Shown: piece after piece, positions 9,317 through 42,866 of the stretch
How the letters are laid out: each line of letters begins with the position of its first letter
Numbering within the stretch: the first letter of the stretch is position 1
Assembly: GCF_904830925.1 (NCBI RefSeq)
Contig: NZ_LR882967.1
Coordinates: 3,490,106-3,554,105, forward strand
Direction: 5' to 3'
DNA length: 64,000 nt
Source of the DNA: Planktothrix pseudagardhii
GTDB lineage: Bacteria > Cyanobacteriota > Cyanobacteriia > Cyanobacteriales > Microcoleaceae
The notes under the pieces: model-generated
Seen by the model: the letters and a program-made list of their open reading frames with translations, nothing else
The model's database searches: none
What the model was told of the DNA's origin: nothing
Translations under genes and position numbers: made by a program

Positions 9317-9327
9317 GTAGTTTTAGT

Positions 9328-9550: not shown

Positions 9551-9591
9551 GGTTGTCTTTTAATCATAATAACGAAATCTCTAGCTATTCT

Positions 9592-11430: not shown

Positions 11431-11665
11431 AGGTCTTGTGATTCCTTTTGAATTGGTGCAATCCCTAGTGTGATTTTAATTGATTAAGGTTATAAATAAA
11501 AAATAAAGTTAAGCGTAGTTTAAATTGTAAAATAAATTCTGTCTTTCCTCCCTAACCCCTTCAGTATCCGCCCGGGTCATTCCCCAAATGCCCCTTTTAT
11601 GGCAATCTATTAGTTAATAGGAGACACAATTCTGATCGCTGATTGACAGAAATCTATTATTAACT

Positions 11666-12886
11666 ATGCAAACTTTACCTGTTCCAACTCAACCGACATC
11701 CGATCAAACTCCGGTGGATACGATGATTCACCGTCGCAAGACTCGTCCTGTCCAGGTGGGGACGGTGACCATTGGTGGGGGTTATCCCGTTGTTGTCCAA
11801 TCGATGATTAATGAAGATACGATGGATATTGATGGGGCGACGGCGGCGGTACGTCGTTTGCATGAAATTGGGTGTGAAATTGTGCGGGTGACGGTTCCGA
11901 GTGTGGGTCATGCGACGGCTGTTGGCAAAATTAAACAGAAATTAGCCGAAACATATCAACCTGTTCCCTTAGTGGCGGATGTTCATCACAATGGCATGAA
12001 AATCGCCCTGGAAGTGGCAAAATATGTCGATAAAGTGCGAATTAATCCAGGGTTATATGTGTTTGAAAAACCGAAAAGCGATCGCACCGAATATACTCAA
12101 TCTGAATTTGATGAAATTGGCGATAAAATTAGGCAAACCTTAGAACCTTTAGTGGTTTCTTTGCGTGATCAAGGAAAAGCCATGCGAATTGGTGTGAATC
12201 ATGGTTCTTTAGCAGAACGAATGTTATTTACTTATGGCGATACTCCCGAAGGCATGGTGGAATCGGCGTTAGAATTTATTAAAATATGTGAATCTTTGGA
12301 TTTTCAAAATATTGTGATTTCCCTCAAGGCGTCACGGGTTCCGGTGATGGTCGCAGCGAACCGTTTAATGGTCAAACGGATGGATGAATTAGGGATGGAT
12401 TATCCCTTACATTTAGGGGTGACAGAAGCCGGAGATGGAGAATATGGTCGGATTAAATCAACGGCTGGAATTGGTACATTATTAGCTGGAGGAATTGGCG
12501 ATACCATTCGGGTTTCTTTAACCGAAGCACCTGAAAAAGAAATTCCCGTTTGTTATAGTATTCTGCAAGCGTTAGGGCTGCGGAAAACGATGGTGGAATA
12601 TGTCGCTTGTCCGTCCTGCGGTCGCACTTTATTTAACTTAGAAGAAGTTTTACATCAAGTCCGCGAAGCCACAAAACATTTAACCGGGTTAGATATTGCG
12701 GTGATGGGATGTATTGTCAATGGCCCCGGAGAAATGGCCGATGCAGACTATGGTTATGTGGGTAAACAACCCGGTTTTATTTCTCTTTATCGCGGTCGAG
12801 AAGAGATTAAAAAAGTCCCTGAAACCCAAGGGGTAGAAGAATTAATTAACTTAATTAAAGCGGATGGCCGTTGGGTTGATCCTTAA
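11666..12886 (+). CDS. ispG: 4-hydroxy-3-methylbut-2-en-1-yl diphosphate synthase (flavodoxin), MEP pathway
   Basis: [24 protein letters not shown], the TIM-barrel and the C-terminal CPSCGRT 4Fe-4S motif are present. It is 406 aa. Confidence 0.9.
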
Positions 12887-12916
12887 TTTAATTCATGTAG
12901 AGACAATTTAATTCAT

Positions 12917-12968
12917 GTAGAGACGCGCCTGGGCCCAGCCATGCCGTAGGCTTTTGGCACGTCTCTAC
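12917..12968. repeat. 52-bp palindromic element (second long-form copy), preceded by a 20-bp tandem duplication AATTTAATTCATGTAGAGAC at 12886-12924
   Basis: GTAGAGACGCGCCTGGGCCCAGCCATGCCGTAGGCTTTTGGCACGTCTCTAC is about 90% identical to the copy at 1174-1225. It lies directly after the ispG stop. Confidence 0.8.
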
Positions 12969-13092
12969 TAAATCCTGTTCCCAGTTCACAGTTCCCTAGC
13001 TCTACGCGCTATAACGGTCAACAGTCAACTGAAACCTGTGCTACATTGGGCGTATTGATATTGAAATTTATATTTTCTGGTTCAACAAACAG

Positions 13093-14379
13093 ATGGTTAT
13101 TTCAAGAAGTGGGCTTGTTCTTGGTGCAACGGCAGTGATGTTAACGGCTGTAGCGGTTGCAGGGGCGGGAATTCATCTTTCGAGTCAAGCATCCTTTCGG
13201 GAAAGTCCCAAGGAGTTAATTGACGAAGTTTGGCAGGTGATCCATAAAAGTTATGTCGATGGAACCTTTAATCAAGTGGACTGGACGGCTGTTCGCACTG
13301 AATATTTAAACCGCAACTACACCAGCGACGAACAAGCCTACACCGCTATTCGGGAAATGTTGAAGAAGCTCGACGACCCCTACACGCGCTTCATGAACCC
13401 CGAAGAATTCAAAAATATGCAAATTGATACTTCTGGGGAATTAACCGGGGTCGGCATTCAATTAACCCAAGATGAAAAGACGAAAAAGTTAGTGGTGATT
13501 TCTCCCATTGAAGGTTCTCCCGCCTTTACCGCCGGAGTTCAAGCTCAAGATATTATTAGTGAAATTGATGGTCGCACCACTGAGGGAATGGATATTAATG
13601 AAGCGGTGAGTTTAATTCGGGGGCCGGTGGGAACAAAAGTTAATATTAAAATATTACGGGGAGATAAACCTTTAGATTTTAATATTACTCGCGATCGCAT
13701 TGAAATTCATCCGGTTCGTTCGTCTAAAAATCCCAGTTCGGCGGGAGAAATTGGTTATATTCGCTTAAATACTTTTAGCGCTAATGCCGCCGAAGAAATG
13801 CGCGAAGCCATTAATGATTTAGAGAAACAAAATGTGGCGGGTTATATCCTTGATTTACGTTCAAATCCAGGGGGATTACTGTATTCTAGCATTGAAATTG
13901 CTCGGATGTGGTTAAATCAAGGCGATATTGTTTCTACGGTTGATCGTCAAGGGGAAACAGACCGTCAAAAAGCAAATAATCGCGCTTTAACCAATAAACC
14001 TTTAGTGGTTTTAGTAGATGGAGGTTCAGCCAGCGCCAGTGAAATTTTATCCGGTGCTTTACAAGATAACAAACGGGCGGTTTTAGTGGGAACAAAAACC
14101 TTTGGGAAAGGGTTAGTTCAATCTGTCCGAGGGGTGGGAAATGGTTCAGGTTTAGCCGTAACCATTGCGAAATATTTTACTCCCAGTGGTCGAGATATTA
14201 ACCATGAAGGAATTCAACCAGATATTAAAGTTGAACTCACCGAAGCCCAACGAGATGAGTTAAGAAAAGATCGGACAAAAGTAGGAACAACGGATGATCC
14301 TCAATATGTTAAAGGGTTAGAAATTCTCAAGGGTGAAATTGCTAAAACAAAACAAGGAACCCAAGCTCAATCTAAATAA
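13093..14379 (+). CDS. ctpA: Carboxyl-terminal processing protease (S41 family, D1/tail-specific protease)
   Basis: It has a signal anchor, a PDZ domain (GVGIQL...VVISPIEGSPA) and the S41 catalytic region (GGSASASEIL...TFGKGLVQS). Confidence 0.85.
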   Translation: MVISRSGLVLGATAVMLTAVAVAGAGIHLSSQASFRESPKELIDEVWQVIHKSYVDGTFNQVDWTAVRTEYLNRNYTSDEQAYTAIREMLKKLDDPYTRFMNPEEFKNMQIDTSGELTGVGIQLTQDEKTKKLVVISPIEGSPAFTAGVQAQDIISEIDGRTTEGMDINEAVSLIRGPVGTKVNIKILRGDKPLDFNITRDRIEIHPVRSSKNPSSAGEIGYIRLNTFSANAAEEMREAINDLEKQNVAGYILDLRSNPGGLLYSSIEIARMWLNQGDIVSTVDRQGETDRQKANNRALTNKPLVVLVDGGSASASEILSGALQDNKRAVLVGTKTFGKGLVQSVRGVGNGSGLAVTIAKYFTPSGRDINHEGIQPDIKVELTEAQRDELRKDRTKVGTTDDPQYVKGLEILKGEIAKTKQGTQAQSK

Positions 14380-14499
14380 TTAGAAGCGAGAATATAGGGG
14401 CGGGAACACTCGCCCTTAATGATTAATGATAACATTTTCTGTGAAAATTCTACGAAAATTGAAGATGAAATCCTTAAAGGGGCGCTACAGATAAAATTT

Positions 14500-14889
14500 A
14501 TGGCTAGCAAGTTCCGCCAATCTGGTTATCATCCGATTCGCAAGCTAAAAGTAATCTTAGCAGGTCTTCATATTGCGATCGCAACGGAGTTTAGTGTTGC
14601 TTACAAAGTCATTGTATCTGTCGTCGTCTTAGTCATTGCTGTGATTTTTAGTCAATGGCAGGATCTAATGTTGATTTTTCTAGCTACAGGCCTAATGTTA
14701 ATCGCTGAATTATTCAATAGTAGCATTGAAGGTTTATGTGATTTTTTGGAACAACAGTATGATGAGAGAATTCGCGCTATCAAAGACATTTCTGCTGCTG
14801 CTGTTGGCATCAGTATTTTAATTTGGGCAGTAGCTTTAATTTTTGAAAGCCACCATCTGTGGTCGTTATTCAATTTGTTTATTCCCTAG
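14500..14889 (+). CDS. dgkA: Diacylglycerol kinase (prokaryotic DgkA family)
   Basis: KFRQSGYHPIRKLK...AELFNSSIE matches the DgkA signature (E..NSAIE) and there are three TM helices. The start was moved to the ATG at 14500, giving a family-typical 129 aa. Confidence 0.75.
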   Translation: MASKFRQSGYHPIRKLKVILAGLHIAIATEFSVAYKVIVSVVVLVIAVIFSQWQDLMLIFLATGLMLIAELFNSSIEGLCDFLEQQYDERIRAIKDISAAAVGISILIWAVALIFESHHLWSLFNLFIP

Positions 14890-17845: not shown

Positions 17846-18712
17846 CTAAATAGGTTGTGGCAAAATCCCATACATAAAAATTTTGGGGAAATCAAAAATT
17901 TGACCCTGAGCGAAAAACTCGAATAGCCACTTAATTACTTTAAAAGATGGGCATAAATGATAAAATTTTCTCACGAAATTTTTGGTTTGTAACCAAATAT
18001 CTTCTACAGGATTTTGTTCAGGTGCATTGGGGGCAAAATTTAGACAAGTAATCCGCCATTCTTCTTCCGATAAATTTTGATTAACTTCAGTTAAATAATC
18101 TCTAAACTTTTGAGAACAATGATAAGTGGCATTATCCCAGACTATAGCTAACCTTTTCCCCGGATTTTGCTGCTGTAAATACTGGATAAAGTCTACGGTA
18201 TTTTCTGTATTTCCCGCCGCATAACCTTTGATAATAAATTCTTTCGTTTGGTAATCTAAAGCTCCATAATAAGTTTGCCTTTCTTTTTGATTTTTGATCG
18301 GAATTTCTATTCTTCTATCTGTTCTTCCCCACACATACCCTAAAATATCTCCCCAGAGAAGATGACATTCATCAATCATAAACACCGTCAGCTTTCCCGC
18401 CTCTATTTCTTCTTTCCAACTCGCTAACTTTTTTTCAATTTCTTCCTTTTTCTCTTGGACTAACTGCTCATTCTTAGCCGGATTCTTCTTTTGGCTTTTT
18501 TTCCAACTGATGCCAGCCTCTTCCAGCAAGCTATAATAACTTTGATGGGATTGAAACACGACTCCATACTCCCTTTCTAACAAAACTTGTAAATCAGACA
18601 ATCTTAACCAATCTCTTTCCCTTAATTCTTCAATAACTTTCTGTTTATCTTCGGGACTTAGATAGCCTTTTCTTCCTTTATATTGGAGTTTTAAACTCTC
18701 TACTCCTTCCAC
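17846..18712 (-). CDS. IS630-family transposase, DDE catalytic part (orfB)
   Basis: FMIDECHLLWGD...AIVWDNATYHCS...LNFAPNAPEQNPVEDIW gives the DDE(34-35) triad and spacing typical of IS630/Tc1 transposases. Confidence 0.8.
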   Translation of the reverse strand: MEGVESLKLQYKGRKGYLSPEDKQKVIEELRERDWLRLSDLQVLLEREYGVVFQSHQSYYSLLEEAGISWKKSQKKNPAKNEQLVQEKKEEIEKKLASWKEEIEAGKLTVFMIDECHLLWGDILGYVWGRTDRRIEIPIKNQKERQTYYGALDYQTKEFIIKGYAAGNTENTVDFIQYLQQQNPGKRLAIVWDNATYHCSQKFRDYLTEVNQNLSEEEWRITCLNFAPNAPEQNPVEDIWLQTKNFVRKFYHLCPSFKVIKWLFEFFAQGQIFDFPKIFMYGILPQPI

Positions 18713-18977: not shown

Positions 18978-20297
18978 TTAAGCTACCCAAAGATGTTGAG
19001 CAAAGCGAAGTGAAAAACTAATCAGTAACAGGGTGAAAAATCCCAAGGTCACATAACCCCAACGGCGATGATGGGATAGCATTACTCCTAAAGCTAAACT
19101 AACAGAAACAATCCCATAAGCTAAACGACTGAGGGAAATTGTACCGCCAGACGCTAATAATAAACCCAAGGCACAAAAACCATAGTTCACTGCTAATAAA
19201 CTAAGTTCATGGCGTAAATACCACAGTAAATAACCACCCCCTAAAATAATCGATGTATTGAGTAAGGGATCACCTGCAATTAACCATAAAATAAACAGTA
19301 AAAAACAGAAACTATAATCAAATTTTACCTCTCCTAATTGATCACGATATCGCCAAAGTAAATAACCTATTATAGCAATAATTATAACTAAAAGTGGATG
19401 CCAAGGATCAACAATTGCACCTTTTTTCCAATTTTGAGAACCGATTAAAATTTGCATCACCATTTTCAACCAGCCTTGACTATCAAATCCGGTTTGGCGT
19501 TGCCATTGGGTGTGTTGAACAGTAATAAAGGCAATGGGATTATTAAATTTTAGCCAACAATAGAGGCTATAAAATAATAAACCACAGCCACTTAATAAAC
19601 CCGACAAATAAGCGATCACAGGTTTTCGTTTTTGCCAAGCTGTAATTAGAAAAGCTGGAATTAAAGCGATTCCAGTAATGCGCGTTGCTGTGGCTAAACT
19701 CCCCCATAAAATCACTTGAGGATATTTTTCTAAATCAAAGGCTTTTAAGGCAGCAATACTCAAAAATAAAAATAAACCTTCCGTATAAATAACAGTGCCA
19801 AAAATCGATAAAGGACACCAAGCTAATATAGCCGTTGCCCAACGGGCAGCCTGAGAATTATTGGTGATTTCCACCCATTGATACAGTAAAATTAAAGCTC
19901 CCAAAAAAGCTAAATTATTAATTAAAATGCCTGCTACTTCAAAGGATAAACCTAAATTCATTAATCCTCGAATTAATAACGGAAATAATGGAAAAAATGC
20001 CACATTTCCGCCCGGTTCTGTCTGATTAATGACTTCATATCCAGAGGTGGCAATAATTTGGTAGAGGGGACTATCCCAAGCTGAAAAAACCTCCCAACCC
20101 CACTGAGAAGAAACAGGAGAAAAGAAAGCAATTGCAAAAAACGTCAACAGAATAATGCTGCGACTCAGTATCCCCATTGTTAAGGCAAAAATAATCCCAT
20201 TAGATTGACAAACATTGGCAATTTTAGTTAAAAAATCTTGTGATTTAGCAAAAAGTTGAGTTAGCACCTTCTGAGAATTCATGGGTTGTTCTTTCAC
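18978..20297 (-). CDS. Polytopic membrane protein, probable glycosyltransferase (PMT/ArnT/DUF2029-like fold)
   Basis: It has about 11 TM helices and the pattern FFPLFPLLIRGL. The family assignment is tentative. Confidence 0.45.
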   Translation of the reverse strand: MKEQPMNSQKVLTQLFAKSQDFLTKIANVCQSNGIIFALTMGILSRSIILLTFFAIAFFSPVSSQWGWEVFSAWDSPLYQIIATSGYEVINQTEPGGNVAFFPLFPLLIRGLMNLGLSFEVAGILINNLAFLGALILLYQWVEITNNSQAARWATAILAWCPLSIFGTVIYTEGLFLFLSIAALKAFDLEKYPQVILWGSLATATRITGIALIPAFLITAWQKRKPVIAYLSGLLSGCGLLFYSLYCWLKFNNPIAFITVQHTQWQRQTGFDSQGWLKMVMQILIGSQNWKKGAIVDPWHPLLVIIIAIIGYLLWRYRDQLGEVKFDYSFCFLLFILWLIAGDPLLNTSIILGGGYLLWYLRHELSLLAVNYGFCALGLLLASGGTISLSRLAYGIVSVSLALGVMLSHHRRWGYVTLGFFTLLLISFSLRFAQHLWVA

Positions 20298-20495
20298 GCC
20301 TTTATTTACAATTCAATTAAAAATCAACTTTAATTTACAATTAGAGAAATTCTACCAAGGATCAGGCAAAATTGAAATTCTTAAGAAAAATGGCAGATTC
20401 CGATAAACTATGCTAGAAAAATGAACAAGAGAAGAAAAAGCTGACCACTGCTTTCTCTGTAACTCAAAACCTCGATTTGTGCCAGGAAATGTCCT

Positions 20496-21350
20496 ATGTT
20501 TTTCAATGCAACTCAACTTTTAATTGATAACTTTGTTGAACAACTTCGCTCAGGATATCATCATACCTATGGGGGATTTAATGCCCATTATGGGGATATT
20601 GTCGCTTGGGCTGGAGGGATGGCTTTAGAAAATATTGCCAATAGCGATGCCCTCTATCATGATGTTGAACATACAATTATCGTTACATTAGTCGGTCAAG
20701 AAATTTTACGCGGAAAACATATCCGCGAAGGTGGGGTTTCTAGCGAAGATTGGCTACATTTTATGCTCTCTCTAGTTTGTCATGATATTGGTTATGTTAA
20801 AGGGGTTTGTCGCCAAGATCGAGAGGGATATTATGCTACAGGATGTGATGAAAACAGGGTACTTTTGCCCTTTGGATGTACAGATGCGAGTTTAATGCCT
20901 TATCATGTTGATCGAGCTAAATTGTTTATTCGAGAACGATTTGGGGGACATCCTTTAATTAAGTCAGATGTGATTCAATCTAATATTGAACTGACACGAT
21001 TTCCGGTTCCTCAAAAATCCGATCATCAAGATACAATACATTATCCCGGTTTAGTGCGGGCGGCGGATTTAATTGGTCAATTGAGTGATCCTCGATATCT
21101 TCAAAAAATTAGTGCCTTATTTTATGAGTTTGAAGAAACAGGATTTAATCAAAAAGCAGGCTATCATAATGCCGGAGAGTTGCGAAGAAATTACCCTCAA
21201 TTTTATTGGCATAAAGTGTATCCCTATATTAAAGATAGTCTACGGTACTTATCTTTAACTCAGCAAGGCCAACAAATTATTGCTAACCTGCACGCCAATG
21301 TCTTCCTGGTTGAACATGAGGAAACCATCAAGGAGGTCGTCATGGTTTAA
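20496..21350 (+). CDS. HD-domain metal-dependent phosphohydrolase-like protein
   Basis: YHDVEHT...VCHDIGY provides the H...HD...H...D spacing of HD domains. Confidence 0.5.
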   Translation: MFFNATQLLIDNFVEQLRSGYHHTYGGFNAHYGDIVAWAGGMALENIANSDALYHDVEHTIIVTLVGQEILRGKHIREGGVSSEDWLHFMLSLVCHDIGYVKGVCRQDREGYYATGCDENRVLLPFGCTDASLMPYHVDRAKLFIRERFGGHPLIKSDVIQSNIELTRFPVPQKSDHQDTIHYPGLVRAADLIGQLSDPRYLQKISALFYEFEETGFNQKAGYHNAGELRRNYPQFYWHKVYPYIKDSLRYLSLTQQGQQIIANLHANVFLVEHEETIKEVVMV

Positions 21351-21440
21351 TCTGTTTAATCGTTGAAGGATAAAATTTTAATGTTCCATCAGGTCATCTA
21401 TCCCAAAATAGGGTAAACTACTTTATATTTTAAATTTTCT

Positions 21441-22583
21441 ATGAGTTCCATGACGAATTCTGTTTTTTCGCCTTTACAAAGTCGTTTACTCACGGGTTTA
21501 CTGATTTTAGTCGTGAGTTGGTTAAGCTTTCAATTTTTAGGTTATGTTGGCGAATTAATCAGTATATTAGTTACCTCTGGATTAATTGCCTTTCTTCTGA
21601 ACTACGCTGTGGCAAAATTAGAACGCTTTATTCCGCGAGGAATTGCCGCCGCTTTAGTGTATTTAATTGCGATTGTAACCTTTGTAATTATTGCCTTAAC
21701 TCTTGTCCCGCCTGTCTTTAATCAAGGACGACAATTAATTACTCGATTACCCGAATTAATAGAATCAGGACGGCAACAGTTAGCGGAATTTCAAGTTTGG
21801 AGTGCTGACCGAAATTTACCCTTTGATGTCGGAATTTTACAACAGCAACTTTTGTCTCGAATTCAAGGAACCATTGAACCGATTCTCACCGGAAGTTTAG
21901 GTTTAGTGCTAGGAACCTTTAATTGGTTTTTTGACTTAATTTTTATTTTGGTCATTGCCTTTTATATGTTATTAGATGGGGAACGGTTGTGGAACCTCCT
22001 GATCACTATTTTATCCCCCCAAATTCGAGAGGTTTTAACCTTTTCCTTAGAGCGGAATTTGAAAAAATTTGTCTTAGGACAAACCTTGCAGGGAATTTTT
22101 ATGGCTGTCACCTTAACCGTTGCCTTTTTAATGTTAAAAGTTCCCTATTTCCTATTATTTGCCGTTGTGATTGGATTATTGGAAATTATCCCCTTTGTGG
22201 GAGCCACATTAGGGATTGGAACTGTCACTATTATTGTGGCTTTTATTGATTGGTGGCTGGCATTACAAGTGTTAGCCGTTGCCGTTGCAATTCAACAAGT
22301 TAAGGATAATATTGTTGCTCCTCGAATTATGGGAGATTTAACCGGATTAAGCCCTGTGATTATTTTTAGTGCTTTATTATTAGGGGGAAAAATAGGAGGA
22401 TTATTAGGATTTATTCTGGCGATTCCCATGGCAGGGGTGATTAAAAGTATTATTGAAGTGGTTGTTGATCCCACTTTACCTCCTCAAACCGGTTCCTTCT
22501 TTTATAATCCTTTAGATTCAAAAATTGACTTAACGCCAACGGAAACTTTATCTCTAGCTGAACAGGAACGCTTGAAGGTGTAA
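21441..22583 (+). CDS. AI-2E family transporter (UPF0118/PerM-like)
   Basis: It has eight TM helices. The C-terminal conserved block is LSPVIIFSALLLGGKIGGLLGFILAIPMAGVIKSI. Confidence 0.8.
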   Translation: MSSMTNSVFSPLQSRLLTGLLILVVSWLSFQFLGYVGELISILVTSGLIAFLLNYAVAKLERFIPRGIAAALVYLIAIVTFVIIALTLVPPVFNQGRQLITRLPELIESGRQQLAEFQVWSADRNLPFDVGILQQQLLSRIQGTIEPILTGSLGLVLGTFNWFFDLIFILVIAFYMLLDGERLWNLLITILSPQIREVLTFSLERNLKKFVLGQTLQGIFMAVTLTVAFLMLKVPYFLLFAVVIGLLEIIPFVGATLGIGTVTIIVAFIDWWLALQVLAVAVAIQQVKDNIVAPRIMGDLTGLSPVIIFSALLLGGKIGGLLGFILAIPMAGVIKSIIEVVVDPTLPPQTGSFFYNPLDSKIDLTPTETLSLAEQERLKV

Positions 22584-22648
22584 AATAAAAAAATAGAGAC
22601 ACAATTCTACAAGTTTTTCAACAATTCTTTGAGTGCAAAATCTGACTT

Positions 22649-23716
22649 ATGAAATGGTGGCAACGACTTAAAACTAATCCTTTAGCTCAATTTGGAGCCG
22701 GAATTTTATTGTTATTTTATGTGATCGTCATTGCAGCAGATTTTGTTGCGCCTTATAGTCCTTATGAATCGCAACTGAACGCTTCATTATTGCCACCGAC
22801 TCAAATTTATTGGTATAACCAAAAAGGGCAATGGATTGGCCCCCATGTTTACCCCACAACTCAAGGCCCGGTGGATATTGAAACTGGAATTCGTAAACTT
22901 AATGTTGATAAAACTCAGCCAAGTCCTGTCCGATTTTTCGTTCAGGGAGAACCCTATAAAATATTAGGAATTATCCCGTTTGATCGTCATTTATTTGGAA
23001 CAATCGGAGCCGGACAAATTAATTTACTGGGAACCGATGAACAAGCCAGAGATCAATTTAGCCGGATTGTTTTTGGAGGTCGAATTAGTCTCAGTATTGG
23101 ATTAGTGGGAATTCTAATTTCGTTCCCGTTAGGAATGATTATTGGAGGAATTTCCGGTTATTTTGGCGGATGGTTAGATACTTTTACCATGCGAATTGTT
23201 GAAGTATTAATGACGATTCCAGGATTATATTTATTAGTAGCTTTAGCCGCCGTATTACCCCCACAAATAACCAGTAGCCAGCGTTTTCTATTGATTGTGG
23301 TGATTATTTCTTTTATTAGTTGGGCTGGGTTAGCACGAGTGATTCGAGGACAAGTTTTATCCATTAAAGAACAACAATTTGTTCAAGCTTCACGGGCTAT
23401 TGGAGCTAATTCTTTATATATTATTGCTCGTCATGTTCTACCCCAAACCGCAACCTATCTGATTATTTCAGCAACATTATCAATTCCCGGTTTTATTATT
23501 GCAGAATCGGTTTTAAGTTTGATTGGCTTAGGCATTCAACAACCCGATCCCTCTTGGGGAAATTTACTCTCTTCAGCAACAAACGCCTCAATTTTAGTGT
23601 TACAACCTTGGTTAATTTGGCCGCCCGCTATTTTAATTATTTTAACGGTCTTAGCTTTTAATTTATTAGGAGATGGGTTAAGAGATGCCCTTGATCCTCG
23701 GAGTCTCCAACGATAA
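22649..23716 (+). CDS. ABC transporter permease, oligopeptide/dipeptide type (OppC/DppC-like), no adjacent ATPase or binding protein
   Basis: It has the OppC N-terminal domain and the EAA-like loop (ASRAIGANSLYIIARHVLP), and the C-terminal LGDGLRDALDPR is diagnostic. Confidence 0.85.
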   Translation: MKWWQRLKTNPLAQFGAGILLLFYVIVIAADFVAPYSPYESQLNASLLPPTQIYWYNQKGQWIGPHVYPTTQGPVDIETGIRKLNVDKTQPSPVRFFVQGEPYKILGIIPFDRHLFGTIGAGQINLLGTDEQARDQFSRIVFGGRISLSIGLVGILISFPLGMIIGGISGYFGGWLDTFTMRIVEVLMTIPGLYLLVALAAVLPPQITSSQRFLLIVVIISFISWAGLARVIRGQVLSIKEQQFVQASRAIGANSLYIIARHVLPQTATYLIISATLSIPGFIIAESVLSLIGLGIQQPDPSWGNLLSSATNASILVLQPWLIWPPAILIILTVLAFNLLGDGLRDALDPRSLQR

Positions 23717-23757
23717 TGGATGATTATTATAACAACAATTGAATTCAAGTTCTACCG

Positions 23758-25212
23758 ATGTTAACTAATAAATCTGGATGTCGAAATGTTGTGATTGTTG
23801 GAGGCGGCCCATCGGGACTGGCGATCGCTTTAATGTTAGCAAAACGTGGCTGGACAGAAATTACTGTTTTAGAAAAAAGAAAAACGGCTGACTATTACGA
23901 ACCGGATAAAGCGTTTAACTATCAAATTGATGGTCGAGGTCAAAAAATATTGGATTGGCTGGGATTAACCCCAAACTTAGCAGGAATGAGTGTTTCCAGC
24001 CAAGAATTTTACTTAACGGTAATTCAACTTAATGGAAAGCGAAAAACGATAAAATTACCCTTTATTAATCCTAATCGAAAAACAGCTTATTGGTTGCCTC
24101 GAAGAGCTTTTGTCTCTCTACTCTATGAAGAAATTGAACGCAATTGCCAACAGCAAATTACCGTTTTATTTGAAACTAAATGTATTGAACTAAATCATAA
24201 ACAGGAACAATTAGAGGTAATTGTTGAATCAAGAAATGGCAAATTAAGGAGTTTTACACCTGCTTTTGTAGTTGGTTGTGATGGTTTAAATTCTATTGTT
24301 CGTCAAACCCTACACGACTGGGAAAAACCTGATAATCATCGCTTTGAAATGCAATATTTTCCCTCGCCTAGTTCAGGACTGCGCTATCAAGTATTAACCT
24401 TACCGCCTCAATTTCCGCTTTCAAACCAGCTAGATGATCAATCTGTCTGTACAATGGCTTATGCAATTCGGGGTAAAGCTGTAGAAGGTCAGAAAAAGAT
24501 TTCTTTGGGTTTATTACCGATGAAAAATCCCGATGAACCTCGAACCGCTAATATTATTACTTATCCTAATCATAAAATTTGGACTTTTAAAACCAATGAA
24601 GAATTATATCGTTTTTTAGAACAATCTTTCCCTCAATTATCCATTCGTGATATTATTTCCGAGTCTGAAATTACACGATTTGTCAACAGTCAAGGCGGTG
24701 TTTTTCCTGTTCCTCAATTTTGTTCGGGATTACACTTTTTATTGAAATCTGATCAAACTTTCTCTGCCATCCTCTTATTAGGAGATGCAGTCCATTGTTT
24801 TCCCCCCGATATTGGTCAAGGGGTCAACTCAGCGTTAGAAGATGTTTATATTTTACAGCAAGTTCTCGAAGAAACCCAGGATGATCTGTTATTGGCTTTA
24901 CCCCTATATGAAGCTCGACGTTCTGGAGATATTGAAGCGTTAATTCATTTAGCTCAAACAACATTTCCTTGGCAATATAACCAAAATTGGTTCCGTCGAA
25001 AGTTATGGGATATCAACTTTTTAATCGGACTGCTTCTGAATCGGTTTTTGCCTTTCTTTTTCAGCCCTCCTGCATTTTTGATGATTCAAGATTATCAACT
25101 CAGTTATCAAGAAATTTGGCATCAAAACCAACGCACAAACCAACGTTTGTTCATTTTCAGTGTAACGCTATTAGGCATATTATTTGTTCTGGGATTCAGT
25201 TTTAACGTCTAA
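23758..25212 (+). CDS. FAD-dependent aromatic-ring monooxygenase (kynurenine 3-monooxygenase-like) with C-terminal membrane anchor
   Basis: It has GxGxxG (VVIVGGGPSGLAIALMLAKRG), DG (VGCDGLNSIVR) and GD (LLGDAVHCFPPDIGQGVNSALED) fingerprints. The C-terminal hydrophobic helices resemble those of KMO. Confidence 0.8.
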   Translation: MLTNKSGCRNVVIVGGGPSGLAIALMLAKRGWTEITVLEKRKTADYYEPDKAFNYQIDGRGQKILDWLGLTPNLAGMSVSSQEFYLTVIQLNGKRKTIKLPFINPNRKTAYWLPRRAFVSLLYEEIERNCQQQITVLFETKCIELNHKQEQLEVIVESRNGKLRSFTPAFVVGCDGLNSIVRQTLHDWEKPDNHRFEMQYFPSPSSGLRYQVLTLPPQFPLSNQLDDQSVCTMAYAIRGKAVEGQKKISLGLLPMKNPDEPRTANIITYPNHKIWTFKTNEELYRFLEQSFPQLSIRDIISESEITRFVNSQGGVFPVPQFCSGLHFLLKSDQTFSAILLLGDAVHCFPPDIGQGVNSALEDVYILQQVLEETQDDLLLALPLYEARRSGDIEALIHLAQTTFPWQYNQNWFRRKLWDINFLIGLLLNRFLPFFFSPPAFLMIQDYQLSYQEIWHQNQRTNQRLFIFSVTLLGILFVLGFSFNV

Positions 25213-25231
25213 CTCAACTGGGATTGAGAAG

Positions 25232-25558
25232 CTAACTTCTACCTTGTTCACCCAGGTAAGAAGTTAAAGTTTGATAATCCGAAAAATCTGAACAGTTAAT
25301 GGCTTGTTCCGTTAACGCAATTTTGGGATTAATGGTACACTTTAATTGATAATTTCCGGTAAAAAATTTACAGGTTGAACAAGGAATTTTATGTAATTCT
25401 TTAACGCTGGTTATTCCTTGTGTCAGTGTTCTATAGGTACTCCAGATTAACGAAAAAACGAATAACCAAGCAACACTAAAGCAAACAATCTGCAATAGCA
25501 TCGGTGAAACTTGATTAAAAATATATAAAATTTGAGACATGGCAGTTAGGAATAACAA
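25232..25558 (-). CDS. Hypothetical small membrane protein with Cys motif (CSTCKFF...C...C)
   Basis: It is 108 aa with two TM helices followed by a Cys-containing tail. No family was recognised. Confidence 0.35.
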   Translation of the reverse strand: MLFLTAMSQILYIFNQVSPMLLQIVCFSVAWLFVFSLIWSTYRTLTQGITSVKELHKIPCSTCKFFTGNYQLKCTINPKIALTEQAINCSDFSDYQTLTSYLGEQGRS

Positions 25559-26114
25559 AGAGGTAAGCTAAAGCTAATACTCATCTATTCTGAAGGGATG
25601 ACTGTTTCCCCTCATCTAACTTCAGCATGATCTGTTTGTGAATTCGGTTTGTAAATTAAGCGATAAAACTCATCCATTGAAGAAGTCTCATCATTGATTA
25701 CAAGCGAAATTAACAAAATCTCTACCTTAAGTTAGAAAATGAATTGATCAGAAATCGGTAAAGTATTGATTACTTCTCTATGAAGTTAAGCTTGGGAATT
25801 GAAATTTTCTGGATTCATATTGCTAAATATCCCTTAACTCCTTTTTGGATTATTTAATGGGATTTTTAAGTAAAAAATGTCCTCTTTTGAGGGTTGAGAT
25901 TGCCATCTTTATCGATAAAGTTGGTGATGAATTGTAGCGTTTCGTTTCAACGCTGAAACACAATTTCTCCAAAGTTGGGTGTTGCTAGTGCAGTCGGGTT
26001 TGATTTTTTTCTATCCCTTTCTGTGATTAATGAATGGGTTTTTTTTAATATTAACCCGGATGCACTGGCTCATCTTTAGCAACTTGGATTCGCTCTGATG
26101 GAGTCAGTAAATAC

Positions 26115-28346
26115 ATGGCAGCGAAATTCCCAAAATTTGATCAAGGTCTGGCTCAAGACCCAACCACTCGCCGAATTTGGTACGGGATTGCCACGGCCCA
26201 TGATTTTGAAAGCCATGATGGCATGAACGAGGAAAATCTCTATCAAAAGATTTTTGCCTCCCATTTTGGTCATTTGGCAATTATCTTTTTATGGACATCC
26301 GGCAACCTGTTCCATGTCGCTTGGCAAGGAAATTTTGAACAGTGGATTCGAGATCCCCTGCACATTCGTCCCATTGCCCATGCCATTTGGGATCCTCAAT
26401 TTGGCAAACCGGCGGTGGAAGCCTTCTCCCAAGCCGGAGCTATAAACCCCGTTAATATTGCCTATTCGGGCGTTTATCATTGGTGGTATACCATTGGGAT
26501 GAGAACTAACGCCGAGCTTTATCAAGGCGCTGTGTTCCTCCTGCTTTTGGCGGCATTGTTTTTGTTTGCGGGCTGGTTACACCTTCAACCCAAGTATCGT
26601 CCGAGTTTGTCTTGGTTTAAGAATGCGGAGTCTCGCTTAAACCACCACTTAGCGGGTTTATTTGGGGTCAGTTGTCTAGCGTGGACAGGCCATTTAGTTC
26701 ATGTTGCCATCCCTGAATCCCGTGGCCAGCACGTCGGATGGGATAACTTCTTGACCACGTTACCCCATCCAGCCGGACTCAAACCCTTCTTTACTGCAAA
26801 TTGGGGGGTTTATGCCCAAAATCCTGATACAGCACGGCACGTTTTTGGCTCATCGGACGGGGCAGGAACGGCGATTTTAACGTTTTTGGGTGGGTTTCAT
26901 CCCCAAACTGAATCGTTATGGTTGACGGATATTGCCCATCACCATTTAGCGATCGCAGTCATCTTTATTATTGCGGGTCATATGTACCGAACCAACTTCG
27001 GTATTGGCCACAGTATTAAAGAGATGTTGAACTCGAAAGATCCGTTGTTTGGGGTTCCCACCGAAGGACAGTTCAACTTACCCCACCAAGGTTTGTATGA
27101 TACCTACAACAACTCCCTGCACTTCCAGTTAGGAATTCACCTGGCTGCGTTGGGTGTGGTGACATCGCTGGTGGCGCAGCATATGTATTCGATGCCACCC
27201 TATGCGTTTATCGCCAGGGATTATACAACCCAAGCGGCGCTGTATACCCATCATCAATATATTGCTGGGTTCCTCATGGTCGGAGCCTTTGCCCATGCTG
27301 CCATCTTCTGGGTACGGGACTATGACCCCGACCAAAACAAAGGCAACGTTTTAGATCGGGTTTTGAATCACAAAGAAGCGATTATTTCTCATTTAAGTTG
27401 GGTGTCTCTGTTTTTGGGATTCCATACCCTGGGTATATACGTTCACAATGATGTGGTTGTCGCCTTTGGGACACCGGAAAAGCAAATCTTGATTGAACCT
27501 GTATTTGCTCAGTTCATTCAAGCGGCTCACGGTAAAGCCCTCTATGCAATGGATGTGTTACTGGCGAACCCTGACAGTATTGCCCATACCGCTTGGCCGA
27601 ATAATGGGAACGTTTGGTTGCCGGGTTGGTTAGCAGCGATTAATTCCGGTAAGAATTCATTGTTTTTAACCATTGGCCCTGGTGATTTCCTCGTTCACCA
27701 TGCCATCGCCCTGGGTCTGCATACCACCACATTAATTTGTGTGAAAGGTGCGTTAGATGCTCGTGGTACTAAACTGATGCCTGATAAAAAAGACTTCGGT
27801 TTTACCTTCCCTTGTGATGGCCCTGGACGGGGTGGCACTTGTCAAACATCCGCTTGGGAGCAATCCTTCTTCCTGGCGACTTTCTGGATGTTGAATACCC
27901 TCGGTTGGGTAACGTTCTATTTCCATTGGAAGCATTTAGGGGTGTGGCAAGGAAACGTTGCTCAATTTAATGAAAGCTCCACCTATATTATGGGTTGGTT
28001 GCGGGATTACCTCTGGCTCTATTCAGCCCAGGTGATCAATGGTTACAACCCCTACGGAACCAGTAACCTCTCGGTTTGGGCTTGGATGTTCCTGTTCGGA
28101 CATTTGGTATGGGCCACTGGGTTTATGTTCCTGATTAGTTGGCGAGGTTATTGGCAAGAACTGATTGAAACGTTAGTTTGGGCGCATGAACGCACCCCTC
28201 TGGCGAACCTCGTGATCTGGAAAGATAAACCAGTTTCGCTGTCAATTGTTCAAGGATGGTTAACGGGTTTAGTTCACTTTACGGTGGGCTATATCCTCAC
28301 CTATGCTGCGTTTCTACTGGCTTCAACGGCTGGGAAATTTGGCTGA
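26115..28346 (+). CDS. psaB: Photosystem I P700 chlorophyll a apoprotein A2 (PsaB); no psaA upstream
   Basis: It is near-identical to canonical PsaB throughout ([42 protein letters not shown] Fx-cluster loop, C-terminal [14 protein letters not shown]). The 555 nt upstream are non-coding. Confidence 0.95.
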
Positions 28347-28373
28347 TCATCCCTGAAAGGGTGAATGATTAAC

Positions 28374-28406
28374 CATAGGGGTGGCGAAAGTTGCCCCTAT
28401 GTTTTT
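28374..28406 (+). terminator. Rho-independent terminator downstream of psaB
   Basis: The hairpin CATAGGGGTGGCGAAAGTTGCCCCTATG is followed by TTTTT, 28 nt after the psaB stop. Confidence 0.55.
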
Positions 28407-28437
28407 GGGCTTCAGTCCTCTGTGAATTATATGAAAT

Positions 28438-28548
28438 CTTTAAATGTTTGCTACGCATATGTTTTCTGTAGAGACGCGCCATGGCGCGTCTCTACGTGGG
28501 GTTTAGGCAATTATCTGTAGTATCAATTTCAGGATTTCATATTATTAG
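28438..28548. repeat. Composite MITE-like repeat: CTTAAATGTTTGCTACGCAT + 28-bp perfect palindrome GTAGAGACGCGCCATGGCGCGTCTCTAC + ATCTGTAGTATCAATTTCAGGATTT module
   Basis: The same three-module arrangement recurs at 51398-51602 with an extra insert. The palindrome at 28468-28495 is perfect. Confidence 0.6.
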
Positions 28549-28594
28549 AAATCAGGTTAGGTATGATAGGGATGAACCCTGTTGTAACACCACA

Positions 28595-28849
28595 ATGAGC
28601 ATCAATCTCACCTCTGACCAAGAACAATTTATTCAAACTCAACTGGAATCTGGGAAATATCAAACCCCTGAACAAGTCATCTCAACTGCGTTGCGCCTAC
28701 TGGATGAATGGCAAAGGGCTGAGGCAGAATGGGTTAAAGATGTGGCTGATAAAATCGATGCTGCTGTATCCGCTACTGAAGAAAATCCTCCCCTTGATGG
28801 TGAAACTTTTATCAATGGGATTTTAGAACGGTTTAAGCCAAACCATTAG
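28595..28849 (+). CDS. parD: Type II antitoxin, ParD/RHH family (COG3609-like)
   Basis: MSINLTSDQEQFIQTQLESGKYQTPEQVISTALRLLDEWQR is a ribbon-helix-helix N-terminus typical of ParD. It is 84 aa and directly followed by a ParE-like start. The 5' part of the listed ORF from 28481 lies in the MITE and is rejected. Confidence 0.65.
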   Translation: MSINLTSDQEQFIQTQLESGKYQTPEQVISTALRLLDEWQRAEAEWVKDVADKIDAAVSATEENPPLDGETFINGILERFKPNH

Positions 28850-28858
28850 GATGCAACG

Positions 28859-28945
28859 ATGAGTCGCTATGTTATCAACATTCTAGCCAGCCATGACCTC
28901 AACGAGATTGCTGAGTATTTTGCCAACCACTATTTAACAGTTAGA
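28859..28945 (+). pseudogene. parE: ParE/RelE-family toxin, 5' remnant (first ~28 codons) truncated by the AT-rich insertion
   Basis: MSRYVINILASHDLNEIAEYFANH fits the ParE N-terminal consensus (M..Y.v.....A..DL..I..YIA). Beyond about codon 29 the reading frame is simply antisense to the C-terminus of the 28934-30451 gene and loses ParE similarity. Confidence 0.5.
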
Positions 28946-39500: not shown

Positions 39501-42500
39501 ATGATAGGTTGTAAAAATTAATAGTTCTGACGGAGATTTAAAATTTTGTAACTGATTTAAACACCGACTCAATTCAAGCTCCAATTCAGAGACATCGTTT
39601 CCCGTGAAATAAGCGATTTCAAGATAAGCTTGAGCAAGACAATAAGCTTCATCAATTCTCCCGGCTTCTTGAGCTTGTAAATAGCAAGTTTTGAGAGGAG
39701 ATAAAATCTGCTTTAAGGAAGTTTTCCAAGGTTTAATAAACCGATAAACCAGTTGTTTAACTTTGATAATTATTGCAAAATTTGCTTGTTTTTGCGATAA
39801 TTCTAAAGCTAATTCTCCCATTTGATTTCCGAACTCAATTTCCCCTTGCGTACAAAGAATAAATCCAAATACAGCATAGACAAAACTTGATAACGTTGTA
39901 TTTCCTTGTTGATAGGATAAATGAACCAGTTTTAAAACCCAAAATGGGAATTGTTTGGGAATTACCCGATAAGCAGAAGGAAAAGCAGAGGTTAAAATTC
40001 TAAATAAATTTACTAAATTAGTATTAGATAATTCGGGTAAATCTAATAATGCTAAGGGTGTTCTTCCCCCTAAATTTTTAATAAAATTATGCTTGAATTC
40101 CTGCCAACTTTCTTCACTAAAATTATCACCCCAGGTGAACCCTAATTGTTGACAAACAGCTAACGCAAGATTGACCGCATTGTGATCTTGATTTTGGCTC
40201 CTATAAGCTTGAATCATTAATTCATAAATTCTTACTTTATGCCCGAATATTTTAACATTTTCTAAAACAATATTTCCCCACTTGTGTAAATTTTCCCAAT
40301 CTTGGCTGAGATAAGCAATTTCTGCTGCTTCTGTGTATAATTCTAATGTTAATTGATAGTCTCGTTCCCAACTCTCCGTTACCAATAACCCCAGACCAAT
40401 CGCTAAATGTCCAATAGCTGTCGGATAGGCGGTGGCAATTTTCGCTTTTTGTCCGGCTATTAAATTAAATAAGGCTAATTGATCTCGTTCTTTTTGATCC
40501 TGAATTAAGCCTACTCCTAAATTGAGTTGATTAATGATATTTAATAAAACTTCGGTTGAAATTATATGTAAAATAATCTTAATGGATTGATTAAAATATT
40601 GTTTTTTGATTTGATTTAAAAGCGAATTTCCGATTTTTAAATGAGTCGCTTGTCGTTGATGAGTTGGAATTAAAAGATAAGCAGCTTGTTGAACTCGGTC
40701 ATGAATAAATTGGTATTTATCAATACCGGGCTGTAACAACGGTAAGGTTTCATTTGGATCAAAGTGTGGAGGGGAAAATACTTCAGTTTCTAAGGAATAA
40801 AAGGGATAAATATCTCTAGCAATAACAATAAATTGAGCCTGTAAAGCAATTTCTAAAGCTTTTAATGTTTCTAAATAAGTTTTTTCAGTTACGGTAGCTA
40901 AATCTACGGCATTAAATTGATTTCCTAAACAAGCCGCAATTTTTAAAATTTCTTGGGTGTCTGGAGGTAATTGTTGTAATTGATGAAGAATTAAATCTAA
41001 AATATTAGAGTTAATCGAACGGGTTTTAATTTGAGTTAAATTACATTGCCAACCTCCGAATAAATTTCGATTTTTTAAGGAAGATTGAGGCGGATTAAAC
41101 CAAATTAGTTCTTCTGTATATAAGGTTTGTAGAAATTGACGAACAAAAAAAGGATTTCCTTGAGTTTTTTGACTGACTAATTCTGCCAAAGGTTTAGCCC
41201 GGTCTAAGGAACAAACTAATGTTTCTGCTATTAGTTGATTAATCGCAGAATCTTCTAAAGCATTTAAAGGAATTCGATGTAAGGGAATTCCTGAATTTTC
41301 TAAGGTTTCTAAGATTTTAATTAAAGGATGTGTTTCCCCGATCTCGTCATCCCGATACGCTAAAATTAGCACTAAGGTTGGAGGTGTAGAATAAATATTT
41401 TGTTCAGGACTCATCAAAACCTGAATTAATCGTAAGGATTCAACATCTGCCCATTGTAAATCATCTAAAAAAATGACTAAGGGATGATGAGGTTTGGCAA
41501 AAGTTTGAATTAGCTTTTGAATTAAACGATTAAATTGATTCAGGTCAAGATTAACCTCTGATTCAGTCAGGGAAGACTGTTGATTTAATAAAACTTTCAG
41601 TTCAGGAATAACAGCCATTAAAACCGGGGCTTGATCTCCGAGTCCATTTAAAAGTTTCTTTTTCCAAGCTTCTACCTGTTCCAAAGGTTCAGTTAATACT
41701 TGTTGAATTAATTGTTTAATCCCTTGTACCCATCCCCAAAAAGGCGTATTCGTTTTAAATTGATCAAATTTGCCTGTGATAAAATAACTGTCTAAGGTGA
41801 CACAATGAGTTATAGGCAAAACTCCTGTTCCACAATATGCAACGGTTTGATAGAATTCTTGAACCAGGGAAGACTTGCCAATTCCTGATTGACCTGTAAT
41901 TACAATAATTTCTGATTGAGCCGTGTTCACAATCGAATTTAAACGCTCAATTTCTGGCTCTCGTCCATAAAATTTATTGGGAATAATAAATCGATCATTT
42001 AAGTCAATCGTCGCCAAAGGAAACGGAGGAATATCCCCCAGTTTTTCCCATTGTTCTAAACAATTTTCTAAATCATAGCGCAGTCCTAATGGAGTTTGAT
42101 AACGCTCCTCTGGATTTTTAGCCATCAATTTTAAAATAATATTATTGAGCATTATCGGTAAGGTCGGTTTAATTTCGCTTAAAGGCTGAGGAAGCAGGGC
42201 TAAATGAGCATGAATTAATTCTAGGGGATCAGAAGATGGAAACGGAAGTTTTCGAGTTAATAATTGATAAAGTGTTACGCCTAAAGAATACAAATCTGTG
42301 CGATAATCAATACCCCGATGGGTTCGTCCGGTTTGTTCGGGAGACATATAAGCTAAAGTTCCTTCTAATCCTTGAGAATTAACAACTTCTTGATGGGAAT
42401 GATTCAGTTGAATAGAAATACTAAAATCAATCAGTTGAACTTTCAAAGTTTCCGGGTGAATTAAAATATTTTGCAGTTTAACATCTTTATGAATCACCCG

Positions 42501-42866
42501 ATGTTGATACAATTGTTCTAAAATTTGAGTAATTTCAATGGCAATTTTTAATAATTCACTTAAGGTTAGTTCTCGCTGTACTAAATAATCGGCTAGTGAA
42601 ATATAGCCTTGATCAGCCATAATCAAGGCAAACCCATTACAATAGGGTTCCAAATCCAGAATCGGAACAATACCGGATATATTAAGAGCTTTGGCAATGC
42701 GATATTGATTTCTAAATTCAATCAAAGAGGGTACGGTTGGATATTCACTGCGTAATAGTTTAATCACAACCGGGTAACCATCAGACAAACGAATCCCACG
42801 ATAAACCAGTGTTCTCGAACCATTATAGATCGGGTTAAGAATCTGATAGCCAGGTAAAGTGATCAT
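36540..42866 (-). CDS. Giant multidomain signalling protein: Ser/Thr-kinase-like domain, AAA/STAND NTPase, TPR-like helical region, GAF, two PAS, class III adenylate/guanylate cyclase
   Basis: The kinase-like N-terminus (VVIKLL, HKDVKLQN, DFS, SPE), the P-loop ITGQSGIGKSSL and the GAF and PAS blocks are present. The C-terminal cyclase homology domain is FADIRDFTSLSE...GDEIMALFG...VNVASRIE. It is 2108 aa with no internal stops. Confidence 0.85.
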   Translation of the reverse strand: MITLPGYQILNPIYNGSRTLVYRGIRLSDGYPVVIKLLRSEYPTVPSLIEFRNQYRIAKALNISGIVPILDLEPYCNGFALIMADQGYISLADYLVQRELTLSELLKIAIEITQILEQLYQHRVIHKDVKLQNILIHPETLKVQLIDFSISIQLNHSHQEVVNSQGLEGTLAYMSPEQTGRTHRGIDYRTDLYSLGVTLYQLLTRKLPFPSSDPLELIHAHLALLPQPLSEIKPTLPIMLNNIILKLMAKNPEERYQTPLGLRYDLENCLEQWEKLGDIPPFPLATIDLNDRFIIPNKFYGREPEIERLNSIVNTAQSEIIVITGQSGIGKSSLVQEFYQTVAYCGTGVLPITHCVTLDSYFITGKFDQFKTNTPFWGWVQGIKQLIQQVLTEPLEQVEAWKKKLLNGLGDQAPVLMAVIPELKVLLNQQSSLTESEVNLDLNQFNRLIQKLIQTFAKPHHPLVIFLDDLQWADVESLRLIQVLMSPEQNIYSTPPTLVLILAYRDDEIGETHPLIKILETLENSGIPLHRIPLNALEDSAINQLIAETLVCSLDRAKPLAELVSQKTQGNPFFVRQFLQTLYTEELIWFNPPQSSLKNRNLFGGWQCNLTQIKTRSINSNILDLILHQLQQLPPDTQEILKIAACLGNQFNAVDLATVTEKTYLETLKALEIALQAQFIVIARDIYPFYSLETEVFSPPHFDPNETLPLLQPGIDKYQFIHDRVQQAAYLLIPTHQRQATHLKIGNSLLNQIKKQYFNQSIKIILHIISTEVLLNIINQLNLGVGLIQDQKERDQLALFNLIAGQKAKIATAYPTAIGHLAIGLGLLVTESWERDYQLTLELYTEAAEIAYLSQDWENLHKWGNIVLENVKIFGHKVRIYELMIQAYRSQNQDHNAVNLALAVCQQLGFTWGDNFSEESWQEFKHNFIKNLGGRTPLALLDLPELSNTNLVNLFRILTSAFPSAYRVIPKQFPFWVLKLVHLSYQQGNTTLSSFVYAVFGFILCTQGEIEFGNQMGELALELSQKQANFAIIIKVKQLVYRFIKPWKTSLKQILSPLKTCYLQAQEAGRIDEAYCLAQAYLEIAYFTGNDVSELELELSRCLNQLQNFKSPSELLIFTTYHQSLQILNGKLEGDTSLNFTGHAENGTIGTTEIGYSSQEIPFELSLNFMVLNYRLDRLQQAKEWSQQAECYLNKDTYFVLQPFFYCYQSLIDLAIYPELSSEDQVKISEKVTQNQEKLKAFSQGTPMNFSHLFYLVEAEFNHIQGDYIKAIEAYEQAIMLAKTYQFIQEEALAEELAAKFYLDWGKEKIARVYLIDAYYSYAHWGAFAKVKDLESRYPQLLNSILAQLVIPTTGTTISNNTTETIISSSHGGSAALDLATVTKASQALSQEIDLEQLLKRLIQVVIENAGAEKCCILLSKSGKLAIEAIASLNPINGGSIEIESLLKSVSVEQSNALPLLILNTVIQTQEFMILADARQESRYRNDPYLIEHQSKSILMTPIQNRGKLIGILYLENNLATAVFTPERLEVLKILFSQAAISIDNAKLYSQVRNNEQQMTQFLEGIPVGVAVLDPTGKPYFTNQKAQQLLKTKVTPGLFCEALSNIYQAYLNWCQQHQFDQLTPYCDLYNPTPDTTFILEVNQGEQTILLENWVTPTYDEEGDLMYAILAFQDITKRQQTELALRQAEEKYRSIFENASEGLFQTTREGHYISANPALAKILGYDSPWDLMSTVRNVEEQIYVDSQRRLDFIQLIDQQGEVSGFEFKAYRKDGSIIWISENARAVFNDKNELLYYEGFVVDITERKTAEEERLQFMAKLSELNHHLDEALDSEFELTDAAARFVPHEFLSFLGYESIVEVQLGAAVQKEMSILFADIRDFTSLSEDMTPEDNFKFINAFLSRMEPAIVENYGFIDKYIGDEIMALFGGSADDAVRAGISMISRLNEYNETRQRPERPPIKIGIGINTGGLMLGIVGGKNRLDSTVISDSVNVASRIENLTKNYGVSLLITHPTFMALENANEYAIRIIDRVKVKGKSDAVTVYEVFDSDLPEIKAGKLRTKTTFEYGLMQYYLERYSEAARLFQECLHHLPMDKVAQIYLERCLSKMF

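Follow-up and report, generated by a model that had tools for sequence, protein, structure and literature searches.

A stand-alone psaB gene of Planktothrix pseudagardhii that very probably encodes the alternative photosystem I core subunit PsaB3

We analyzed a stretch of 64,000 nucleotides (nt) from the chromosome of the cyanobacterium Planktothrix pseudagardhii (contig NZ_LR882967.1, positions 3,490,106 to 3,554,105 of the forward strand; hereafter the window), which holds a psaB gene placed far from any psaA. The gene is a real, intact, stand-alone psaB of photosystem I (PSI), and it very probably encodes the alternative core subunit known as PsaB3 (Gisriel et al. 2023) or PsaB2 (Magnuson et al. 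2011). The name PsaB2 was given to this paralogue by Ekman (2011) and Magnuson et al. (2011); Gisriel et al. (2023; PMC10694217) changed it to PsaB3. The gene is already known, as it is annotated in public databases as a second PsaB and is represented in the published PsaB phylogeny. The coordinates of the gene, of its flanking elements and of comparison genes are collected in Table 1.

The protein encoded by the window gene matched Pfam family PF00223 over positions 1-711 of 711 (1287 bits) and the NCBIfam PsaB equivalog TIGR01336 at 1522 bits (cutoff 922), while its score against the PsaA model TIGR01335 (662 bits) fell under the cutoff of that model (863). Its full length aligned to solved PsaB chains at about 1530-1560 bits. 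Both the 12-residue FX motif and a 24-residue helix stretch are identical to those of chain B of structure 1JB0. In established PSI structures this helix bears the His of P700, the Met of A0 and the Trp of A1; in Thermosynechococcus elongatus numbering its residues include His B660, Met B668, Trp B673 and Trp B677. The cofactor residues checked, namely the two FX cysteines and those of this helix, are all kept. The original prediction, made from the letters of the window, had called this PsaB canonical and complete. It is complete, with 743 amino acids (aa) and full-length family matches, but it is not canonical, given substitutions in the FX area and an insertion of one residue, a Gln that none of the five best-matching chains inspected in the PDB carries. 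The database entry WP_254174066.1 of P. pseudagardhii is identical in sequence to the window PsaB.

The window contains no second gene of the PsaA/PsaB family. A tblastn search with PsaA as query (E<=10) over all 64 kb returned no psaA or psaA remnant, only a cross-match to psaB, so that the prediction of no psaA-psaB operon at this site stands; the nearest window edges lie 26 kb upstream and 36 kb downstream of psaB, and both flanks are without psaA. Two alternatives had been put forward, a second psaB paralogue or a psaAB operon split in this genome, together with a search for psaA and further psaB copies elsewhere. That search recovered both psaA and psaB1 in the sister chromosome of P. tepida PCC 9214 (LR882970.1), where locus L183 holds psaA (751 aa, positions 7654-9909, TIGR01335 at 1590 bits) followed after a 91-nt gap by psaB1 (742 aa, positions 10001-12229), at about 1.9 Mb from the stand-alone psaB of that chromosome. 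Because the standard psaB1 directly follows psaA in this locus, the split operon is refuted and the stand-alone gene is to be read as a second paralogue. An operon of psaA and psaB1 is likewise present in P. agardhii and P. rubescens.

The databases carry the same pattern into P. pseudagardhii itself. The standard PsaB protein WP_072718156.1, which is 87.2% identical to the window PsaB, is on record on three contigs, the longest of 6,601,744 bp, and the only contig on record for the window PsaB has that same length. Two of the contigs that carry WP_072718156.1 exceed 1 Mb, and the second of them is reported with mostly shared neighboring genes. Furthermore, the alignments of Gisriel et al. (2023; PMC10694217) list for P. 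tepida one PsaA (WP_072718157.1) and two PsaB proteins, the standard WP_072718156.1 and WP_072719439.1; the printed part of the collapsed representative of the second PsaB equals the window protein save at three positions. A psaA elsewhere unaccompanied by a second psaB, the outcome that would have pointed to a mere split, is therefore not what was found, since the second psaB is on record. Taken together, the sequence records indicate that the window genome holds the usual psaA-psaB1 operon elsewhere and that the stand-alone copy is its second psaB paralogue. Scans of genome and metagenome contigs with PsaB, which were the source of the psaA-linked and stand-alone comparison loci (L001 and so on), returned no Planktothrix locus and none above 91% identity among the matches listed.

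Residues that distinguish the paralogue were sought in an alignment of 84 distinct PsaB sequences from the fetched loci, numbered by chain B of 1JB0, which included 66 standard copies and 10 stand-alone Nostocales copies. The 10 Nostocales copies formed one clade in the neighbor-joining (NJ) tree (bootstrap 96), which excluded the window copy. Sixteen residue states were common to this clade and absent, or nearly so, in the 66 standard copies. The window PsaB has nine of them, eight of which lie in the C-terminal FX/quinone region: C542, F563, T564, Q577, T578, E582, the inserted Q583 and W715 in window numbering, or L540C, Y561F, A562T, D575Q, I576T, D580E, the Gln insertion and R712W in T. 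elongatus numbering. The seven substitutions occur in all 10 Nostocales stand-alone copies, and at none of these positions did more than 5% of the standard copies have the PsaB3 state. The insertion turns the AWD-[SA][FMV] of standard copies into AWEQSF in the window, and the Gln column is gapped in 66 of 66 standard sequences. The states in the stretch that follows the FX-binding loop (Table 1) were shared by all Nostocales stand-alone copies, and not one of the 66 standard copies had them. The ninth shared state, A395, is found in a few standard copies too. Overall, the positions at which the window PsaB departs from the standard copy are concentrated near FX and the phylloquinone of the B branch.

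The same signature was present in about 18 of the 20 best cyanobacterial matches to the window PsaB, and the 90% identity cluster of this protein includes PsaB3 of Leptolyngbya ohadii (WP_088891388.1) as well as sequences from Desertifilum and P. mougeotii. In the published maximum-likelihood (ML) tree (PMC10694217), the representative of the window sequence is sister to Desertifilum (support 97.4/100), in a group that also holds Cyanothece PCC 7425 and the L. ohadii PsaB3 and that adjoins the Nostocales PsaB3 clade, while PsaB1 of P. tepida is placed with that of P. serta among the standard sequences. The authors present Cyanothece PCC 7425 as an example of horizontal transfer of PsaB3, and they state that every PsaB3, as they delimit the group, has the inserted Gln together with changes close to FX and phylloquinone. 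The scale of the divergence can be judged from PsaB1, which is 97.4% identical between P. tepida and P. serta, two species whose PetA proteins share only 86.2% identity; the window PsaB and PsaB1 share 87.2%.

Several observations weigh against this assignment. Our NJ tree placed the window copy with a bootstrap of only 38-46, and because of this weak support the assignment to the PsaB3 clade rests on the signature residues and the published ML tree. In the comparison of FX loop and psaB clades that the original prediction had proposed, the FX-region residues and the published tree favor PsaB3, and the result of our own tree is weak. Note also that the FX signature appears in psaB genes linked to psaA, in the Coleofasciculaceae (L001, L005, L010), in Allocoleopsis (L013) and in Scytonema PCC 10023 (L045), and that in locus L173 a psaA-linked psaB encodes a PsaB that falls in one 90% cluster with the PsaB of L009. 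PsaB3 is therefore a sequence type and not a clean locus type. L005 and the standard-type Coleofasciculus copy L014 differ at no more than 41 positions, of which roughly one in three falls in the FX/A1 patch; either gene conversion may have moved this patch or some lineages may use the PsaB3 type in the operon. Finally, the DNA of the psaA-psaB1 operon was read from the sister chromosome LR882970.1, and for P. pseudagardhii the basis is the exact-sequence record of the standard protein.

The copy in P. tepida PCC 9214 (WP_072719439.1, encoded in LR882970.1), which one source already names 'apoprotein A2 2', differs from the window PsaB by 2 residues. The two genes show 48 synonymous and 4 nonsynonymous differences, with a ratio of nonsynonymous to synonymous substitution rates (dN/dS) of 0.023. 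Comparison of the window psaB with psaB1, on the other hand, gave a saturated synonymous rate (dS). The stand-alone psaB is under strong purifying selection and is anciently diverged from psaB1, and recent gene conversion between psaB3 and psaB1 within the genome can be set aside because synonymous sites are saturated. No fewer than four lineages of Planktothrix keep the stand-alone copy, namely P. tepida, P. pseudagardhii, P. mougeotii and FACHB-1365. Two loci of the P. tepida chromosome (L170 and L172; LR882970.1, 6,266,439 bp) match the window with the same gene order at 97.8-99.96% DNA identity, and the PetA of the window is 100% identical to the cytochrome f of P. tepida.

DNA identity with P. 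tepida is uneven along the window. It is 97.8% in the 8 kb at 20263-28412, where psaB lies, rises to 99.96% in the 12.7 kb at 30606-43316 and is 99.7% in another 21 kb. This mosaic suggests recombination between P. pseudagardhii and P. tepida.

Three other explanations of the stand-alone gene were considered and rejected, on the grounds of the L183 operon, the lack of FaRLiP families and the intact, constrained frame. The window psaB could be the sole psaB of its genome, rearranged away from psaA; the lack of psaA over 26 kb upstream and 36 kb downstream and a DDE transposase gene at 17846-18712 would agree with such an event. However, in LR882970.1 psaA is immediately followed by psaB1, PsaB1 and the window PsaB are each recorded on a contig of 6,601,744 bp, and the published data set has one PsaA and two PsaB for P. 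tepida, which leaves a split operon with a negligible chance of being correct. An equally slight chance attaches to a PsaB2 of the far-red light photoacclimation (FaRLiP) type that became detached from its far-red gene cluster. Extra psaB copies do occur in FaRLiP strains, but the original prediction was right that no FaRLiP genes are nearby: no second PsaA, PsaL, allophycocyanin, PsbA-like ChlF or RfpA phytochrome family, and more generally no cluster member (psaA2, psaL2, chlF, rfpABC or apc paralogues), was detected among the open reading frames (ORFs) of about 140 aa or more scanned over the 64 kb. In addition, the literature derives the FaRLiP PsaB2 and the PsaB3 paralogue from separate duplications, and the tree of Gisriel et al. 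(PMC10694217) puts the window-type sequence in the neighborhood of PsaB3.

It is also conceivable that the gene is a redundant or decaying duplicate, or a xenologue, that is silent or interchangeable with psaB1. The PsaB3 literature establishes no condition-specific role in any organism, and the G+C content at third codon positions is lower in the window psaB than in psaB1 (0.50 vs 0.57). Against this stand an intact frame with the checked cofactor residues kept, a dN/dS of 0.023 between two species, retention in the Planktothrix lineages listed above and eight signature states conserved across orders, and Gisriel et al. (PMC10694217) report PsaB3 as expressed and present in PSI in L. ohadii and Chlorogloeopsis. 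We consider this explanation very unlikely, though less remote than the other two, and retain the interpretation of the gene as PsaB3.

How such a PsaB3 subunit might work can be outlined from its sequence. The gene would be transcribed from a predicted promoter of its own in the upstream spacer, and the transcript would end at a hairpin 3' of the stop codon. The product would pair with the single PsaA to form a second population of PSI centers. In these centers, loss of the Asp beside the second FX cysteine, the Gln inserted five residues further on and the replacement of Arg712 by Trp would alter the electrostatics around A1B and FX; because an acidic and a basic residue are substituted together, the co-substitution of Asp and Arg suggests a lost ion pair. 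A higher efficiency of such PSI centers at low oxygen was proposed by Rutherford et al. (2012), as the proposal is relayed in later literature that cites it. For L. ohadii and Chlorogloeopsis, constitutive expression of PsaB3 and its assembly into PSI have been reported (PMC10694217). Separate papers on Planktothrix psaB and on the PSI of L. ohadii contain nothing on the paralogue.

Table 1. Positions of the stand-alone psaB, of elements around it and of comparison genes (window coordinates unless a locus is named)
Feature	Position	Strand	Basis or remarks
Small protein next to psaB	25232..25558	-	108 aa from TTG, about 102 aa from conserved Met
Divergent intergenic region, 556 nt; psaB promoter and 5' untranslated region and small-ORF promoter expected here	25559..26114	.	
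psaB paralogue, very probably PsaB3 type, 743 aa, probably monocistronic	26115..28346	+	Pfam, NCBIfam, FX-region signature, dN/dS
FX-binding loop followed by QTSAWEQS, codons 565-584	27807..27866	+	D575Q, I576T, D580E, inserted Gln
Intrinsic-terminator-like hairpin, 12-bp stem, 6 G-C pairs, then TTTTT	28374..28411	+	Consensus match, terminator scan
ParD-like ORF	28481-28849	-	
AAA_15/AbiEii-like ATPase	28934-30451	-	
psaA-linked psaB with PsaB3 FX signature	L001 8001-10232; L005 2970-5201; L010 10001-12229; L013 10001-12214; L045 10001-12214		

The original prediction of 555 non-coding nt upstream of psaB held with a correction of one: the spacer contains no ORF of 50 aa or more wholly inside it, and an Rfam scan of the whole window, spacer included, found no family. 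The spacer is identical in the P. tepida locus L172, and its conservation with the distant locus L009 is confined to a block at about 25595-25665. One or both of the divergent genes may be regulated through this block, which contains an imperfect direct repeat with TTACA-like units about 12 nt apart. Matches to sigma-70-like promoters in the spacer (e.g., 25894-25921) were no commoner than in shuffled sequence. Repeats of the HLR1/RpaB type numbered 60 against 56 expected by chance, with one weak match of three mismatches in the spacer at 25721, and with a count so near chance they were rejected as evidence of regulation. On the other side of the gene, the terminator-like hairpin starts 28 nt past the stop codon of psaB, and P. 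tepida, Desertifilum and L009 likewise have it as a stand-alone gene. These features suggest that psaB3 is probably monocistronic.

The neighbor of psaB across the spacer is a small ORF that had been described as convergent. This was a misreading of its orientation, since the ORF is encoded on the minus strand and is thus divergent from psaB; it is convergent only with an FAD-monooxygenase gene at 23758..25212. A hydrophobic segment marks the N terminus of the small protein, which further contains the motif IPCSxCxFFTGxYxLKC...AINCSD, with four conserved Cys; no Pfam or NCBIfam model matched the protein. By tblastn, the ORF was found upstream of the stand-alone psaB in L172, in L184 (Desertifilum) and in L009 (119-406 on the minus strand, 45% identity, E 2e-31), and was absent from all other fetched loci, those of Nostocales PsaB3 included. 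The family is uncharacterized and large, with 615 representative clusters matching at E<=1e-3.

The pair of psaB3 and the small ORF is the only synteny common to Planktothrix, Desertifilum and L009, as the other flanking genes all differ, and its conservation would fit either a two-gene module or the remnant of an old synteny. It could be imagined that a mobile two-gene module was spread by horizontal transfer, with the small protein as a partner of PsaB3-containing PSI (e.g., an assembly or regulatory factor served by the shared spacer). We consider this unlikely, and a dedicated functional link between psaB3 and the small ORF is itself improbable because the family is so large and because it is absent from the Nostocales PsaB3 loci. 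In a related reading, the FX/A1 patch may have been exchanged between psaB copies by gene conversion, which would explain the PsaB3 patch in the psaA-linked psaB of the Coleofasciculaceae.

Other genes identified in the window are ordinary chromosomal ones, including ispG, ctpA, petC-petA and a GUN4-like gene. Located 2.3 kb downstream of psaB on the plus strand (30698-33316) is a gene whose 872-aa product is homologous to the eukaryotic major vault protein and has the domains Vault, Vault_2, Vault_3, Vault_4 and MVP_shoulder (E-values down to 2e-66); an identical protein is encoded in P. tepida LR882970.1. The two Planktothrix genomes align cleanly except in 28413-30605, between psaB and this gene, where identity drops to 94.7% or is lost, against 99.96% in the flanks. 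The AAA_15/AbiEii-like ATPase in this stretch has 505 aa in the window and 412 aa in L172, and with the ParD-like ORF beside it the region looks like a variable toxin-antitoxin or defense-like islet. A 2108-aa signaling protein is encoded on the minus strand at 36540-42866, with a Ser/Thr kinase, an AAA_16/STAND NTPase, TPR, GAF and PAS domains and an adenylate/guanylate cyclase domain.

Two of the comparison loci present psaB arrangements of other kinds. In Scytonema sp. PMC 1070.18 (L047), psaA is followed by two tandem psaB genes (10001-12223 and 12638-14860) that encode identical proteins. A contig labelled 'Actinomycetota bacterium MAG69' (L028, JBLNEP010000098.1) holds a cyanobacterial psaB that stands alone and whose PsaB3-like signature, LPCDGPGRSGTCQISAWQQ, is divergent; the contig is most likely mis-binned.

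The gene of P. pseudagardhii represents a clean example of PsaB3 in non-heterocystous, non-far-red Oscillatoriales. It bears on a question that concerns the class as a whole, namely why in some cyanobacteria two variants of the PSI core are kept whose differences lie mostly near FX and the quinone of the B branch. Planktothrix species with and without psaB3 could serve as a comparative system for this question.

Outside Planktothrix, no named relative among the known systems is closer to the window PsaB than the second PsaB encoded by Desertifilum (WP_069966280.1), with 91.7% identity. It is the sister of the window type in the published tree (97.4/100), and it is likewise encoded by a stand-alone gene with a homologous small ORF divergently upstream (L184), but the remaining flanking genes all differ and the organism belongs to another family. 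PsaB3 of L. ohadii (WP_088891388.1) shares with the window PsaB its 90% cluster and its region of the published tree, and its host is also non-heterocystous and non-FaRLiP and also encodes a standard PsaB. The two proteins are however 87.2% identical overall, and expression and incorporation into a PSI tetramer are reported for L. ohadii, whereas the Planktothrix copy is known from sequence.

The 'PsaB2' proteins of Nostoc punctiforme and Nostoc sp. PCC 7120 (Ekman 2011; Magnuson 2011) are members of the Nostocales PsaB3 clade. As in the window, psaB lies away from psaA in the 10 Nostocales loci, and the window copy shares 8-9 of the 16 diagnostic states, around FX and A1. In contrast, Y5, W226, S340, I389, G396 and L595 are missing from the window copy, the Nostocales proteins form an NJ clade of their own (bootstrap 96) without it, their loci are without the small divergent ORF, and Planktothrix, unlike these hosts, forms no heterocysts. 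The PsaB2 of FaRLiP strains offers a more distant parallel. It too is an additional PsaB paralogue and takes the place of the standard subunit, but it stems from a separate duplication and is found with psaA2 in a far-red gene cluster, of which the window has no counterpart.

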